NCBI GenBank assembly: GCA_001563335.1
Contig: LRSL01000056.1
Location: forward strand, 1-21,084
DNA length: 21,084 nt
Direction of reading: 5' to 3'
Source of the DNA: Candidatus Thorarchaeota archaeon SMTZ1-45
GTDB taxonomy: Archaea > Asgardarchaeota > Thorarchaeia > Thorarchaeales > Thorarchaeaceae
Below the pieces are notes generated by a model. It made no database searches and had not been told where the DNA came from. It was given only the letters and a program-made list of their open reading frames with translations. Both the position numbers and the translations under genes were made by a program. Below are positions 3,119 to 11,969 of this stretch, one piece after another (the first letter of the stretch is position 1; every line of letters starts with the position of its first letter).

Positions 3119-5419
3119 TTAACGTCGAAGATAGAACCTTCTATTCAAAACAGTTCCAAGTAGTGAAACTACTCTACGGTCCACTAGAGATACACCATCG
3201 ATCATTAGCAGTGCTCGATTCAGATTTGAGAAGACTGCATTAAGGTAAGGTTGGGCTTCAACCATTTCTGATTGTTCAACCATTTGAAGATAGGCGTCTG
3301 CGATTTTAATCAATCCAAGCCAGTCTTCGGCTAAAAGGTAGTCATATTGAGTTTGATCAGAAACAATGAGAGTTCCAGGAAATTTGCTCTTATCAACATA
3401 GGCTGCATATTGATTTTCAAGCGCTAGTGAAAAACGACGCAAAAGCTGTGATATCGATGAGGATGTTGCTTTAATGAACTCTGCTGACTCAATAAATGAT
3501 GGTTCTATTCTAAGGACATCACCAAATGCAATAGCAGCTCCATAGAAACCACTAGCCAATTCAGAGTAGTCCTTGTTATCATAAAATGCTCTTATTGTCT
3601 GGACAAGGTATGTTTGACCTAACCAATATTGAGCCAAAAGAGGATCGGTTTCAAGGACAGTGTCGTCTACAGGAGGTTGGATACGGCCACCAACCTCAAC
3701 GTTTAGTGCACTCAAATTCATCTTTGCTGTTGATAGAGCTGCCATTAAGCTAGCAACATTAGAAAGCTCTGATGCATTCTGACTCATAATCTTGGATCGG
3801 TCCAGAAGAGTGTTCCATGAGGACTCTATGAATGGTACGACAAGTGAAACACCTTGAATAAAGATCGAATCTTCATCCATTTGTACATCGAAAAGTAACC
3901 TATCGATATCATCTAGAAGCCTCATGAGTCTTGGAGGGATTGTACCTCCATGTCGAATTAGCAACCAAACGACATTATAGGTTGCAATTGCTACTTCTAC
4001 GAAAGCGCGATTGTCAGTAGGAAAGAGAGGAACATATTGTACAAGAATCTCACGAAGTGGATCTTGGATGTCTATATCTGACCTTTCAATCACACGCATC
4101 TTAGAAAGTGCTAAACCCATTCTAGTCCCAATGAGCTCGATTTCTGAAATCCGACCCTCAGAGAAATGGTCTTCTCTTAGTTTCACAGCTTTTTCAAAAG
4201 CTTCCACTCCAGTTGACCAAAACTCATCACATTCTGTGCATAGGCATGCCCAACCTATTGCATTCTCGGTTCTAGCAACTTCAAGGTCAGTATCAGGGTA
4301 TATGTCTTTCAATTCCCGTAGTAATTCCTTAGCTGCATCAAAATACTCTGTTGCTTTAGTGATGCTTTCATGATCACCAAGTAACCCATGTGCGAAACCA
4401 AGTCCTGCTAACGTTTTGAATATGTGAATTCTTTGACTTGCATCTAAGTCTTCAATACTATAGAATATTCTGAGTCCAAGCTGGAGCCGCTCTATGGCTT
4501 GAGGAACGCCCTCGCGCCAACCGTTTGCCAAGATACTCGAACCAATAACAAGGTGAGCTAACCCCACTTCAGGTTTTCCCACAAGTTTTGCGTTAAAAGC
4601 TAAATCATAGAGTTCTGCGGCTTTATCGCCAATATCGCGTGCAGTACGGTGTGAAACCGAATCATCTCTAGTTTCATTTACTCCTAGTTGGAGATTGACC
4701 GCCGCAAGCCAAACAGGATCATTTAGTGCTCTAGCTCTTCGCTCTAAATCCTTTAATTTCTCTCGAGCATCTTCAAATAGTCGGAGTTCCGTGAGAACAC
4801 AGGAATGGTCAAACGTAAGCTCATATAAAAGATCTTTTAGGCCAATCTCATTGCTTATCTCAATCAATCGATTAAGAAGTAGTTCAGCACCCTCAAAGAA
4901 ACCCTCCTCAGATAGAACCCATGCAAGATTGTGCACTTCATACAAAGCAAGATTGGTAGATCCCTCATGACGTCTATCGTAAATCGCATTTAGTGTCATG
5001 AGAACTTCGTCAGCTAGGAAAGGGAGTAGAGGTCTGAGATTAAGACGAATTGAAGAACTTAGTGCTTGTGAAAGCTCACCAAGCATGTCAATGAGATTGG
5101 GAATTGCTTCAATATCCGGAAGTAGCTCACATTCAGAGCGTCTGAAACTATTCGTATATCTTGTGTCAAGTAACAATAGTAGTTCAGGAAGTACGCGGCT
5201 TTTATGGAAAGACAATCGAATCGATAACTCAGTAAGCTTAGCACTAGCAAGACCAGTTCTACGAAGAATTATCTCTTCAATGGCACGTGCTATATCAAAG
5301 AGAGTATTTGCTTCTTCACTGTCATCGAAAGGGATATTCTGAACTGCTGAGAGCCCATCATCGAGAGATAGGTTTGCACAGAGTATGTCTCTCAATGTTG
5401 CTATCAACAGGTCTTGCAA
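3119..5419 (-). CDS. Large alpha-helical TPR-like repeat protein, function unknown
   Basis: 766-aa ORF with TPR-like helical pairs (HNLAWVLSEEGFFEGAELLL, GLGFAHGLLGDHESITKATEYFDAA, ENAIGWA). A GAGAGG SD-like sequence precedes the TTG start. Confidence 0.65.
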   Translation of the reverse strand: MQDLLIATLRDILCANLSLDDGLSAVQNIPFDDSEEANTLFDIARAIEEIILRRTGLASAKLTELSIRLSFHKSRVLPELLLLLDTRYTNSFRRSECELLPDIEAIPNLIDMLGELSQALSSSIRLNLRPLLPFLADEVLMTLNAIYDRRHEGSTNLALYEVHNLAWVLSEEGFFEGAELLLNRLIEISNEIGLKDLLYELTFDHSCVLTELRLFEDAREKLKDLERRARALNDPVWLAAVNLQLGVNETRDDSVSHRTARDIGDKAAELYDLAFNAKLVGKPEVGLAHLVIGSSILANGWREGVPQAIERLQLGLRIFYSIEDLDASQRIHIFKTLAGLGFAHGLLGDHESITKATEYFDAAKELLRELKDIYPDTDLEVARTENAIGWACLCTECDEFWSTGVEAFEKAVKLREDHFSEGRISEIELIGTRMGLALSKMRVIERSDIDIQDPLREILVQYVPLFPTDNRAFVEVAIATYNVVWLLIRHGGTIPPRLMRLLDDIDRLLFDVQMDEDSIFIQGVSLVVPFIESSWNTLLDRSKIMSQNASELSNVASLMAALSTAKMNLSALNVEVGGRIQPPVDDTVLETDPLLAQYWLGQTYLVQTIRAFYDNKDYSELASGFYGAAIAFGDVLRIEPSFIESAEFIKATSSSISQLLRRFSLALENQYAAYVDKSKFPGTLIVSDQTQYDYLLAEDWLGLIKIADAYLQMVEQSEMVEAQPYLNAVFSNLNRALLMIDGVSLVDRRVVSLLGTVLNRRFYLRR

Positions 5420-6219: not shown

Positions 6220-6966
6220 TTAACGCCCAGGACTGATTTCGCCAGGCCATACTCGGATTCCTTCGTCGGTTATTCTCATGGAATGAATCCTTGAACTATG
6301 CTTTGAGCCTCTCAATTTGAGAACCTCAATTGAACGAGATCGTGATGTGTCACTTATTTTCTCGTTATAAAGTACAATAACACCTGATGCTAAGAAGGCT
6401 TCGATGTCAAAAACACCAAATCCCTGTTCATGAGCTGGAATTTCGCTGGTAAGAAGGAGCGTACAACCAGTCCTTGTGATACTAGCAGCGAGCTTGAAGA
6501 ATTCCTCACGAAGGATATCTCGACTTTTAAATTTATACGCTAGAATTGAAAGGGTGTCGAGAACAACACGTTTTGCATTCAATTTCTTCACATGATTGAG
6601 AATAATAGCCTCCAGTCCGGAAAGGTCAAAGCTGGGATACTCTCCAATAGTTACTGGAGCTACTTCCTTAGATGGTGACAGGTCTACTATTGAAATCTTC
6701 TTTTCCTTCTCAAGCTTCTCGAGGTCCATTCCAAATCGAATCATGTTCCTTTTAATGAGGTGAGGAGGCTCTTCGAGTGTTACTAATACGCCAGCTTCAT
6801 TATAATCAGTTGCACCCTTATAGATGAACTGAGTTGCAAGAATGCTCTTTCCTGTCCCAGCTTTTCCAGCGACAAGTATTGTATCACCTCTGGGAAAGCC
6901 GCCCTCAATTAGTTCATCGAGGCCGGGAATTCCAGTCTTTACTCGTTCTATTGTAGTGTCGCTCAT
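6220..6966 (-). CDS. Single-domain KaiC-like ATPase (CI-like), catalytic motifs intact
   Basis: RVKTGIPGLDELIEGGFP, Walker A GKAGTGKS, TLEEP, RVVLDTLS, EAFLASGVIVL, RSIEVLKLRGSKH, ITDEGIRVWP. Confidence 0.92.
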   Translation of the reverse strand: MSDTTIERVKTGIPGLDELIEGGFPRGDTILVAGKAGTGKSILATQFIYKGATDYNEAGVLVTLEEPPHLIKRNMIRFGMDLEKLEKEKKISIVDLSPSKEVAPVTIGEYPSFDLSGLEAIILNHVKKLNAKRVVLDTLSILAYKFKSRDILREEFFKLAASITRTGCTLLLTSEIPAHEQGFGVFDIEAFLASGVIVLYNEKISDTSRSRSIEVLKLRGSKHSSRIHSMRITDEGIRVWPGEISPGR

Positions 6967-7295
6967 TCTGACTCATCCTTCTTTTTCGTCAATACTTTAG
7001 CACCAAGAACCATCTTCATCAGTAAGTCTGGTTCGGGAATACCGGTTACTGACACTCCACCTATCATTACTGTTGGAAGAGCAAAGATACCATACTCTTC
7101 GGCGGCTTCTGGATTCTCGCTGACGTTAATCACTTTCAACGTAAATACGTCAGAGCCAAAGTTTTCAATTGTTTCTCTTATTACTTCCTCTGCTCGTGGA
7201 CAAAATGCGCAAGAGTCAGACTTGAAGAAAACGACCTCGATTGTTTCAGAGTCGTCCTCTTCTATCGATGCCTTGCGTGTCTTTTTGTCCGACAA
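6963..7295 (-). CDS. Thioredoxin-fold protein with CAFC motif and KaiB-like segment
   Basis: CxxC (CAFC) and the cis-Pro motif ALPT; VFTLKVINVSENPEAAEEYGIFALPTV. An AGGAG SD precedes the TTG start, and the stop overlaps the KaiC-like start (ATGA). Confidence 0.85.
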   Translation of the reverse strand: MSDKKTRKASIEEDDSETIEVVFFKSDSCAFCPRAEEVIRETIENFGSDVFTLKVINVSENPEAAEEYGIFALPTVMIGGVSVTGIPEPDLLMKMVLGAKVLTKKKDESE

Positions 7296-7411
7296 ATGGA
7301 AGCACTCCTAGGTTTGAGAAACGGCAAGGTTCAAAGAAATGCTAGTCACTTGAATGTTTTGAGGGTGTTGGCGAATGCTCTTTTTCAGCGGCTATTATTA
7401 CCTGGGTAATA

Positions 7412-7807
7412 TCAGTACTTCAATAGACGCTTGATTCTTGTTGCTGCTTTTCCTATTGGTCGTGAATGATATCTAACATCACGAGGCATGACAGCAGCCA
7501 AAATGAGTGCCTGCTTTCCAGTAGTCCCAATCTTCTTGAAGACTGCTTTCCCATGAGTGCACCGAAGACTAATATCACGAATATCACCAAGCATCAATTC
7601 TTTCCTAACTCGCTCAGCTGAGTCAGAGATAAAACCAGAGACTGCCGCAACAACATCTCGATCTGCACCGGAAGAAACTGCTGAGGCAATTGAGAACCCA
7701 TCGTCTCTGACAAGAGCGGCGAGTGTAAATCCACCCTCCTTATTCATTTGCTCGAGAATCTTTGGAAGAACACTATAGTCAGGACGACTCATCCTAATTA
7801 TCTCCAT
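7412..7807 (-). CDS. Roadblock/LC7 (MglB-like) domain protein
   Basis: GGFTLAALVRDDGFSIAS, VVAAVSGFISDSAERVRKELMLG and terminal helix KAATRIKRLL match the roadblock pattern; 131 aa. Confidence 0.85.
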   Translation of the reverse strand: MEIIRMSRPDYSVLPKILEQMNKEGGFTLAALVRDDGFSIASAVSSGADRDVVAAVSGFISDSAERVRKELMLGDIRDISLRCTHGKAVFKKIGTTGKQALILAAVMPRDVRYHSRPIGKAATRIKRLLKY

Positions 7808-7840
7808 TTAACCAACGGTCTACCATCGAGTTATTCGTTT

Positions 7841-7888
7841 CCCTAATAAACAATGTGAGATTGAATTGACGACAGTAGAAATTTAAAT
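7841..7888. promoter_or_regulatory. Candidate divergent promoter between the roadblock and Rab-like genes
   Basis: GTAGAA-ATTTAAAT (7875-7888, BRE/TATA-like) lies about 40 nt before ATG 7928. TTTATTA on the - strand (7844-7850) lies about 40 nt before the roadblock start. Confidence 0.35.
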
Positions 7889-7927
7889 GCACTCGACTTC
7901 TGGACATGAGTACGGAGTAAGAGTGCG

Positions 7928-8476
7928 ATGCCTGCTGAGTACCGCTACAAGATTGTCATGTTAGGAGACGGTGCTGTAGGCAAAACAGCTATGACAACTC
8001 GATTTACCCAGAACTTCTTTGATACAGACTACAAACGCACTATCGGGAGTGACTTTGCTGTTAAAAGACTTCAACTAGATGATATTAATGCGCATGTGAC
8101 TCTGCAAATATGGGATCTTGCAGGTCAGCCAAGATTCGAGTCTGTGCGTCAAGGATTCTATAGAGGTGCGCGAGGTGGTCTCTTGCTATATGATGTGACT
8201 CGAAGACGGACATTCATTAATATAGAAAACTGGAAAGAAGAAGCTTTCAGGAGTCTACAAAAAGAGATACCTTTGGTCGTAGTAGCAAACAAGGTAGACC
8301 TGAAAGATAGTCGAGTTGTCGCTACAGAAGAGGGAGAAGAGTACGCCAAGAATAACAGTTTCATGTATGTTGAGTCTAGTGCATTAACTGGAGAAAATGT
8401 CGAAGAGGCATATGCCAATCTTTGTAGGATAATGATTGAAGAATCTAAAGACATCAGCGAAATGACATCAACATAG
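7928..8476 (+). CDS. Rab-like small GTPase (Asgard type, no C-terminal prenylation motif)
   Basis: G1 GDGAVGKT, G2 TIG, G3 WDLAGQ, G4 NKVD, G5 SAL; RabF-like IGSDF, TLQIW, RFESVR, FYRGA, LLYDVT. Confidence 0.93.
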   Translation: MPAEYRYKIVMLGDGAVGKTAMTTRFTQNFFDTDYKRTIGSDFAVKRLQLDDINAHVTLQIWDLAGQPRFESVRQGFYRGARGGLLLYDVTRRRTFINIENWKEEAFRSLQKEIPLVVVANKVDLKDSRVVATEEGEEYAKNNSFMYVESSALTGENVEEAYANLCRIMIEESKDISEMTST

Positions 8477-11402: not shown

Positions 11403-11969
11403 TTAAGTGAGTCCACCGGCTTCAAGAATCTTGATTGCCAGCTCAAGGAATGCTGCTTCGACATTAAGACCTGTCTTTGCAGAGGTTTCTAGAAATGAAG
11501 TGATGACACCCTGAGCAGCAATCCTATTCGCTAATTGTTGTCCCTCGTTAGTGGTCACAATTGTTTGAGCCATTACAGGATTGTCTTTGAACTGGTCACG
11601 AAGATCTGTTTTGTTTGCGATCAAAACAATGGGTATCTTCTTACCTGCATTCGTCCAACACTCTTCCACCCAATTCATGAGGTTATCAAAGGATTTTCTC
11701 TCAACTGTCGAATATACAGCTAATGCACCTTGTGCGCCTTTATAGAACGTAGAACGTACGCTTTTGAAGTGCTCCTGACCAGCTAAGTCCCAAATCTGAA
11801 TACTCACGTCATGACCGCCTTCTAGTTGCATCTTCTTGACGGCGAAGTCTGCACCGATGGTGATCATATAGTTGGCCCTGAAGCCTTCTCCCATGTAAGT
11901 TCTACGGAGACTTGTCTTCCCGACGCTTCCATCTCCCATTAATACAACCTTGAACAATGCAGTGACCAT
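11403..11969 (-). CDS. Rab-like small GTPase with insertion after G4
   Basis: GDGSVGKT, TIGADF, QIWDLAGQ, FYKGA, NKTD, ETSAK. A GGTGA SD precedes the ATG; no C-terminal Cys. Confidence 0.93.
   Translation of the reverse strand: MVTALFKVVLMGDGSVGKTSLRRTYMGEGFRANYMITIGADFAVKKMQLEGGHDVSIQIWDLAGQEHFKSVRSTFYKGAQGALAVYSTVERKSFDNLMNWVEECWTNAGKKIPIVLIANKTDLRDQFKDNPVMAQTIVTTNEGQQLANRIAAQGVITSFLETSAKTGLNVEAAFLELAIKILEAGGLT

Follow-up and report, generated by a model that had tools for sequence, protein, structure and literature searches.

The stretch of DNA analysed here, referred to below as the window, is a complete contig of 21,084 bp (LRSL01000056.1) from the Asgard archaeon Candidatus Thorarchaeota archaeon SMTZ1-45. 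Its minus strand carries five genes in a row, which encode a Roadblock/LC7-fold protein (Robl), a thioredoxin-fold protein (Trx), two KaiC-family proteins (KaiC1 and KaiC2) and a protein of 766 aa, and Robl stands head-to-head with a gene for a Rab-like small GTPase (Table 1). The initial annotation, made from the letters of the window alone, had placed Robl co-oriented 116 nt upstream of Trx-KaiC-KaiC and 120 nt from the divergent Rab-like gene; both distances agree with our analysis, and all five gene identities were borne out, by Pfam or, in the case of Robl, by fold. Comparison with other genomes reveals that the cluster is real and order-wide. Beyond Rab, Pfam analysis of the window proteins identified one WD40 and one HEAT-repeat protein, together with another Rab-like gene (Rab2).

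Table 1. Genes, spacers and conserved elements of the Robl-Rab-KaiC cluster (coordinates are those of the window)
Feature	Position	Strand	Length, matches and evidence
Rab-like small GTPase (Thor-Rab)	7928..8476	+	Pfam Ras 6e-53; 182 aa, single domain
Divergent Robl/Rab spacer, two back-to-back TATA-like elements	7808..7927	.	120 nt
TATA-like ATTTAAAT before Rab	within 7878-7890	+	Comparison of orthologous spacers
TATA-like GTTTATTAGG before Robl	7842-7851	-	Comparison of orthologous spacers
Robl, Roadblock/LC7-fold protein, 131 aa	7412..7807	-	PF03259 21.1 bits, AlphaFold2 (AF2) model, Foldseek, orthologue alignment
Robl-Trx spacer, conserved element and Shine-Dalgarno (SD)-like TAGGAG	7296..7411	-	116 nt
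Conserved 15-nt element CAAAACATTCAAGTG	7347-7361	-	Comparison of orthologous spacers
SD-like TAGGAG, downstream of CAAAACATTCAAGTG	7305-7310	-	Robl-Trx spacer
Trx, CxxC thioredoxin-fold protein	6963..7295	-	Thioredoxin_3 1.2e-9; KaiB 28.2 bits
KaiC1, single-domain KaiC-family ATPase, 248 aa	6220..6966	-	PF06745 1.5e-70
KaiC2, divergent KaiC-family protein, 237 aa	5481..6194	-	PF06745 6.8e-29 and DUF7504
766-aa all-helical protein, co-oriented, 61 nt after KaiC2	3119..5419	-	No Pfam family

Proteins encoded by the cluster

The Rab-like protein is identical in 182/182 residues to the crystallised "Thorarchaeota Rab" (PDB: 7EZB, 7EZD, 7EZE) and is called here Thor-Rab. It is characterized by the P-loop GDGAVGKT, R37-T38 in switch I and DLAGQ67 in switch II, and its closest relatives in the PDB after 7EZB are Rab11, Rab2, Ypt1 and Rab8, i.e. 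its core is not of the MglA type. Among 20 orthologues Q67 is invariant (20/20) and R37 is present in 18, with His in L047 and Thr in G025 (genomes and loci are given by our own G and L numbers). The C-terminus (...DISEMTST) lacks the prenylatable Cys of eukaryotic Rabs, and Thor-Rab differs from Rag GTPases in having no C-terminal roadblock domain and a Gtr1_RagA score of 16.7 bits, under the cut-off of 22. Its structure and basal GTPase activity have been published: according to Tran et al. 2024 (PMC10933270, main text), the structure is nearest to human Rab1B (root mean square deviation 1.04 Å, versus 2.38 Å to MglA), GTP is hydrolysed about as slowly as by Rab11B, prenylatable cysteines are absent, and Arg37 is aligned with the intrinsic arginine finger Arg53 of MglA, an Arg that is missing in the paralogues. 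The same authors point out that matching GTPases to their GTPase-activating proteins (GAPs) or guanine nucleotide exchange factors is hard given the gene layout, and the main text of that paper does not mention the genomic neighbours of the Thor-Rab gene, KaiC included. The second Rab-like gene of the window, Rab2 (11403-11969, minus strand), is 41% identical to Thor-Rab at the protein level and has Ile in place of the Arg in switch I; its family-wide conservation (74-94%) is higher than that of Thor-Rab (66-78%).

Pfam alone does not assign Robl to the Roadblock family, as the PF03259 match (21.1 bits, E=2.7e-4; 21.3 bits in a scan of the own genome) falls under the gathering cut-off of 23 bits. 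The AF2 model calculated from an alignment of 21 orthologues has a mean pLDDT (predicted local distance difference test) of 81.4 and comprises helix 11-25, strands 29-34 and 39-44, helix 50-71, strands 78-83, 86-94 and 101-107, and helix 115-129, in the order a-bb-a-bbb-a, which corresponds to the full Roadblock fold. The top Foldseek match of the model is Roadblock3 of MK-D1 (9JUE, template modelling (TM) score 0.82/0.88), followed by chains of MglB (TM 0.78-0.82) and by LAMTOR2 (TM 0.60-0.73), with a probability of 1.00 for 9JUE, 1J3W, 3T1S, 6IZW, 7F8M and LAMTOR2. Judged by this model, Robl is a Roadblock/LC7-fold protein, its predicted fold confirming what Pfam misses; phmmer detected no sequence similarity between Robl and MglB. 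The Roadblock protein crystallised by the authors of the Thor-Rab structure (7F8M) is a different paralogue, related to Robl with E=0.0015. Robl orthologues share a basic C-terminal motif with invariant R112, Y113, R116 and K120. In 13/21 of them translation starts at the position of "M[EK]RPDY", which corresponds to Met6 of the frame in the window (ATG at 7792); therefore the true start is probably at 7792, so that the first five listed codons (7792-7807) would be untranslated and the divergent spacer would be 135 nt long.

The remaining proteins form a unit of a thioredoxin and two KaiC homologs. Trx carries the CxxC motif CAFC, and its KaiB match, slightly over the cut-off of 27 bits, spans only 40 residues, with the CxxC kept. 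KaiC1 has the Walker A motif GKAGTGKS and "LEE" with the catalytic Glu-Glu pair, and is nearest to the CI half of KaiC (171.9 bits to CI versus 79.8 bits to CII of 8ZN5). KaiC2 retains Walker A (GPLGSGKT) and is probably not catalytic, because "TTD" replaces the Glu-Glu pair ("vfvttdvsp" opposite "iyvaleehp" in the alignment with PH0284). Here the KaiC proteins are encoded by two separate single-domain genes, not as CI and CII in one chain as in the KaiABC clock, and no KaiA family was found by Pfam among the window proteins scanned. For the 766-aa protein, language-model features matched clusters of tetratricopeptide repeat (TPR) proteins at 0.93, which serves as a lead only; the protein is found throughout one of the families of the order (f1).

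Conservation of the cluster

We analysed 37 other genomes from both families of the order. Flanks of 1.5 kb were compared for 18 genomes from the genus and flanks of 9 kb for 20 representatives, G001 belonging to both sets. Robl, Trx and KaiC1 are contiguous in 37/37, and KaiC2 comes next in every genome except one, in which the sequence compared stops there. Among the 36 genomes in which this can be judged, the distance between Rab and Robl is 283 nt or less in 32; the Robl neighbourhood is thus not a peculiarity of the genome analysed here. A KaiC1 orthologue is present in 73/87 genomes of the order, including 24/24 high-quality genomes and 17/17 genera, with 77-95% identity within f1 and 67% in the sole genome of family f2. 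Within the genus, the genomes lacking Robl are those lacking KaiC1, with the exception of G007, in which KaiC1 is located at the start of a contig. The gene order of the window is hexapeptide transferase, EF-2-like protein, the cluster, WD40, HEAT, Rab2, PolB, LarC, CofE, DUF2114 and MtrH/MtrA/MtrH, with HEAT present in only some genomes of the collinear f1 set.

The informative comparison for the adjacency of Robl and Rab is G025, from the second family, where Rab is inverted yet still adjacent and its far-side neighbours have changed. This genome keeps the hexapeptide transferase, the EF-2-like protein, KaiC2, KaiC1, Trx, Robl and Rab, so oriented that Rab-Robl-Trx-KaiC1-KaiC2 all point in the same direction, with 46 nt between Rab and Robl. 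The TPR-like 766-aa protein and WD40, HEAT and Rab2 are absent from the stretch compared, and ParA/NUBPL, HflX and a helicase follow beyond Rab.

Four genomes (G011, G097, G063, G091) depart from the common arrangement. In G063 (L041, 6810-8030) a gene for a TnpB/Cas12f1-like protein of 406 aa is inserted exactly in the Robl/Rab divergent spacer, and in G091 a 1.2-kb insert with two unknown open reading frames (ORFs) separates the two genes. In G011 (L011, 1885-3255; G011:C316) an orthologue of the WD40 protein (73% identity) lies 168 nt from Robl, whose promoter-like block is intact, and the assembly (91% complete) yielded no Rab orthologue at E<=1e-60. A 400-aa ORF in L011 was considered as a TnpB insertion like that in L041, a reading rejected by BLASTP; the ORF encodes this WD40 orthologue.

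Outside the order, the best relatives of KaiC1 exhibit 39-47% identity, versus at least 67% within it. Searches (tblastn) with the window proteins against 20 KaiC loci of other Asgard families returned no Robl, Trx at two loci and, at the end of one locus, a Rab-like match some 5 kb away from KaiC. Among nine loci with the nearest Robl homologs outside the order, KaiC or Trx adjoin Robl in none (0/9), and an Arf-like GTPase adjoins it in one. The conservation across Thor, Loki and Heimdall genomes that the initial annotation proposed to check therefore holds within the order, but the cluster, not found in these 20 KaiC and nine Robl loci, is not a general feature of the three groups.

Intergenic regions

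Spacer lengths in orthologous loci differ along the row. The distance between Trx and KaiC1 ranges from -20 to +7 nt in 20 orthologous loci, the genes overlapping or lying directly against each other, and in the window the end of Trx and the start of KaiC1 share 4 nt. The gap between KaiC1 and KaiC2 measures 9-35 nt (114 nt in one locus, with a truncated KaiC2 call), and Robl and Trx are separated by 63-111 nt (272 nt in one locus), never by less than 63 nt. The conserved blocks "CATTTAATAGG/AAG" (with "GAATGCGCAA") and "CCTTAAAA" recur in 19 orthologous divergent spacers. By eye, the 15-nt element CAAAACATTCAAGTG of the Robl-Trx spacer can be recognised in about 19/21 genomes compared. Measured in five spacers, its distance to the Trx start is 45-52 nt, and that from the Robl stop varies. 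Being position-locked and conserved upstream of Trx, CAAAACATTCAAGTG suggests separate regulation of Trx-KaiC, perhaps as an internal promoter or operator, although its sequence differs from a canonical TATA box of A and T only. From these patterns we infer three promoters: one each for Robl and Rab, corresponding to the TATA-like blocks of the divergent spacer, and a candidate internal promoter/operator for Trx-KaiC. In some orthologues (L039, L040) oligo-T runs directly follow the Robl stop. The copy of CAAAACATTCAAGTG in the window is the only exact one in the own genome, and a search for a regulon there gave seven matches at up to one mismatch, the same number as the reversed control (7).

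Tests of the proposed link between Robl and Thor-Rab

The initial annotation had proposed predicting the complex of a Roadblock dimer with the GTPase. The prediction for two copies of Robl with Rab, made with our own alignments, passed against the controls, with a score of 0.34 versus 0.02 for the best of three, though in a band graded as weak support. The pass mark is reached by 116/157 solved complexes and by 2/215 mismatched pairs; a pass at a score of 0.60 or under is seen in only 18/157 solved complexes and in the two passing mismatches alike. The runs agree in at least 71% of their contacts, with a partner pLDDT of at least 75. Since MglA-MglB complexes have already been solved, the pass may reflect likeness to them.

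The distribution of Roadblock genes in the own genome provides another line of evidence: of 13 Robl_LC7 matches, 5 (at three loci) have one of the 25 Ras-family matches no more than 2 kb away, whereas 0.42 are expected under random placement (P(>=3)=0.029, P(>=5)=0.0014). Rate covariation was assessed by the mirror-tree approach with the species signal removed, using 16 taxa and permutation. With only 8 taxa the partial r for Robl-Rab was 0.54, and it fell to 0.23 with 16 taxa; the values for Robl-KaiC1 and Robl-Trx are -0.26 and 0.07. Elsewhere in the own genome we found a row of three Roadblock genes beside a Ras-family gene (G000:C55:45332-47163, 80-737 nt away) and, on C69, a Roadblock-containing frame of 326 aa 1.6 kb from a GTPase.

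Proposed role of the cluster and alternative explanations

The reading that we tentatively favour, with rather less than even confidence, is that of an order-specific, conservon-like Asgard G-protein cluster, in which Thor-Rab would be regulated by Robl in the manner of MglB, and Robl would be genetically linked to a Trx-KaiC1-KaiC2 unit that could provide ATP/redox input. Robl would act as a homodimeric Roadblock platform of the MglB/LAMTOR type, expressed from its own promoter, and its most likely target would be the divergently transcribed Thor-Rab. By analogy with MglB and MglA, it may bring the intrinsic Arg37 and Gln67 of the GTPase into position, as a regulator of the GAP type (or one selective for the nucleotide state). 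The Trx-KaiC1-KaiC2(-TPR) unit, permanently attached to Robl, would combine an active CI-like KaiC ATPase, a catalytically degenerate KaiC and a CxxC thioredoxin, and could set the availability or activity of Robl according to ATP and redox state. The whole would then parallel the actinobacterial conservons, which comprise a sensor ATPase, a roadblock, a small GTPase and an accessory sensor, except that two KaiC proteins would take the position of the histidine-kinase-like CvnA. Binding of Robl to Rab, the direction of signalling and any contact between KaiC and Robl are inferred. In favour of this proposal we count the identity of Thor-Rab, its R37 and Q67, the fold of Robl, the score of the predicted Robl2:Rab complex, the adjacencies in 37/37 and 32/36 genomes, the arrangement in G025, the enrichment of Roadblock genes near Ras-family genes, the row of Trx, KaiC and GTPase genes in G036 and G102 (see below), and the precedent of conservons. 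The functional link of Robl to Thor-Rab is circumstantial.

Several observations weigh against this proposal. All four disruptions of the cluster (G011, G097, G063 and G091) occur at the Robl/Rab junction, and the strongest counter-evidence is that, when this junction breaks, Robl stays with the KaiC unit and not with Rab: in G011 (91% complete) Rab is precisely deleted while Robl (78% identity), Trx, KaiC1 and KaiC2 are intact, and in G097 Rab-WD40-HEAT-Rab2-PolB are located on another contig, the adjacency being kept in two congeners. The whole 21-kb window is collinear across the 17 genera of f1, unrelated genes included, so adjacency there is weak evidence of function. Since a promoter-like element of its own lies before Robl and a conserved element before Trx, Robl and the Trx-KaiC unit may be expressed separately. 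Position 37 is Thr in the Rab of G025 and His in that of L047, the complex score remains in the weak band, and the covariation of Robl with Rab (partial r 0.23, P=0.08) is not above that with WD40 (0.28) or with the EF-2-like protein (0.25). The proposal in the initial annotation that a Kai-like module may signal through Roadblock to a Rab-like switch is partly supported: the MglB-like fold, Arg37/Gln67, the weak pass of the predicted complex and the order-wide cluster speak for it, and the separability of Rab and the collinearity in f1 weaken it.

The breaks at the junction support the alternative that Robl is an adaptor or output subunit of the KaiC module only, and its adjacency to Thor-Rab an inherited gene order with no direct regulation. 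The unbroken Robl-Trx-KaiC1 arrangement (37/37), with KaiC2 next in all but one, the confinement of the four disruptions to the Robl/Rab side, and the intact Robl without Rab in G011 all fit this view, which we nevertheless consider on the unlikely side, if a serious contender. The Robl-Trx spacer of at least 63 nt, with its promoter/operator-like element, makes Robl the least tightly coupled gene of the row, whereas Trx and KaiC1 abut and KaiC2 follows KaiC1 after 9-35 nt. Robl also exhibits no covariation with KaiC1 or Trx, Trx-KaiC(-KaiC) rows of other Asgard families lack a detectable Robl, its fold is that of known GTPase regulators, and the Robl2:Rab complex has weak support against near-zero controls.

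The promoter-like architecture supports the other main alternative, in which two neighbouring systems operate without any signal between them, an MglB/MglA-like pair of Robl and Rab and an independent Trx-KaiC1-KaiC2(-TPR) operon with its own promoter. This explanation, in our estimate clearly unlikely, agrees with the separate TATA-like elements for Robl and Rab, the element at a fixed distance before the Trx start, the oligo-T runs after the Robl stop in L039 and L040, the existence of Trx-KaiC pairs without Robl elsewhere and the absence of KaiC/Trx next to the nine Robl homologs outside the order; moreover, an association of archaeal KaiC with a KaiB-like thioredoxin has already been described (PMC4858521). 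It is at odds with G011 and G097, where the broken junction leaves Robl with Trx-KaiC and not with Rab, with the five co-oriented genes and short gaps of G025, and with another Asgard family that also joins Trx-KaiC to a small GTPase. Finally, slow rearrangement within the order could have preserved all these adjacencies as historical remnants with no functional relation, as might be expected from about 16 functionally unrelated genes collinear over 17 genera of f1, and from the hexapeptide transferase and EF-2-like genes that remain with the KaiC genes even in G025. We regard this as very improbable, given that the start-stop overlap of Trx and KaiC1 indicates operon organisation, that intergenic elements are conserved, that Roadblock genes are enriched beside Ras-family genes genome-wide, that Rab of G025 is inverted but still next to Robl while its far-side neighbours have changed, and that the complex prediction gives weak support.

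Comparison with known systems

A close counterpart of the Robl-Rab pair is MglA/MglB of Thermus and Myxococcus (3T1Q, 6IZW), where a gene for a Roadblock-fold protein also lies beside that for a small Ras-like GTPase. The Robl model superimposes on MglB with the TM scores given above, and Thor-Rab has an Arg at the position of MglA Arg53 (equivalence from the main text of Tran et al., PMC10933270) as well as the switch II Gln. On the other hand, Thor-Rab is Rab-like, with a canonical DLAGQ, the genes are divergent and not arranged in an mglBA operon, a Trx-KaiC-KaiC unit is attached, and similarity of Robl to MglB is undetectable at the sequence level. Actinobacterial conservons (AGPS; CvnA-D, Mfp) are described as combining an autophosphorylating, ATP-using sensor, a roadblock and a small Ras-like GTPase, sometimes with an accessory sensor that modulates the ATPase (10.1101/2025.07.03.663114), and the roadblock MfpD is reported as the GAP of MfpB. 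Neither a histidine-kinase-like CvnA nor CvnC (DUF742) was found by Pfam among the window proteins scanned, and the ATPase here is a pair of the KaiC/RecA type in an archaeal host; the relation is one of analogy and not of membership.

The Trx-KaiC part resembles the archaeal KaiC with a KaiB-like thioredoxin partner (arCOG01174-type) described by Makarova et al. 2016 (PMC4858521), the shared feature being the translational coupling of a gene for a thioredoxin fold to single-domain KaiC-family ATPases, one of them degenerate; the attached Roadblock and Rab-like genes are not mentioned in what that account says of this pair. Another conserved neighbourhood of a Roadblock-superfamily gene with a Rab-like one is the Asgard operon of a LAMTOR1-like Roadblock, a Rab-like GTPase and DENN (Liu et al., 10.1101/2020.10.19.343400). 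Here, Pfam gave no DENN match among the window proteins, KaiC and Trx being present instead, and the main text of that preprint does not mention KaiC. With Ragulator-Rag (LAMTOR2/3, RagA/C) the cluster may share a Roadblock dimer as a platform for a small GTPase, as suggested by the fold match to LAMTOR2; the analogy to nutrient-to-GTPase signalling drawn in the initial annotation found no support beyond this common fold; the GTPase is Rab-like and not Rag-like. In a broader and speculative proposition, which we rate as rather unlikely, the cluster would be a "G-protein system" of archaea linking the energy and redox state of the cell to a Rab switch, with an origin independent of bacterial conservons and older than Ragulator-type Roadblock platforms. 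We did not find the cluster described in the full texts searched, which did not extend to the 2017 KaiC-hub paper or the supplements of the cited papers.

Asgard archaea encode dozens of small GTPases together with Roadblock or longin proteins. For the sole thorarchaeal Rab whose structure is solved and whose GTPase assay is established, the conserved Roadblock neighbour is now a named candidate regulator, and a putative cognate pair is therefore directly testable with existing reagents. Input from the KaiC/thioredoxin unit to Rab, if it exists, would amount to the first such pathway to be proposed for a Rab-like switch of Asgard archaea, and to a new role for archaeal KaiC-family ATPases.

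Other KaiC-containing loci of Asgard archaea

Two of the KaiC loci outside the order, in G036 and G399, bear a partial resemblance to the cluster. In an independent Asgard family we found a co-oriented row of six genes (G036: L051, 3235-6414; G102: L075, 4274-7496), which encode ORFs of 139 aa and 100 aa (with faint winged helix-turn-helix matches) and 152 aa (with no family), a CxxC-type thioredoxin, KaiC and a RagA/Arf-like GTPase, and which are 61-82% identical between the two genera. A further locus (G399: L055, 4312-6427) comprises a 117-aa protein with a faint thioredoxin match (18.9 bits), a thioredoxin, KaiC and a degenerate KaiC/DUF7504, and no GTPase or Roadblock was detected near this row. 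The small ORFs without Pfam family upstream of Trx in G036 and G399 were considered as candidates for Robl and rejected, as hhalign against the Robl alignment gave probabilities of at most 1%. For the 152-aa ORF, a lenient Pfam search returned no match, and the AF2 model, calculated from two sequences, is unusable (pLDDT 38.7), its bb-a-bbb-aa order alone agreeing with a longin.

The closest relatives of KaiC1 outside the order are preceded by a co-oriented gene for a regulator of the Lrp/AsnC type, about 130-177 aa long (L052, L054, L057, L059, L061 and L066). All of the upstream ORFs scanned (6/6) belong to this type, and KaiC with an Lrp/AsnC-type regulator is a different, widespread KaiC pairing in other Asgard families.

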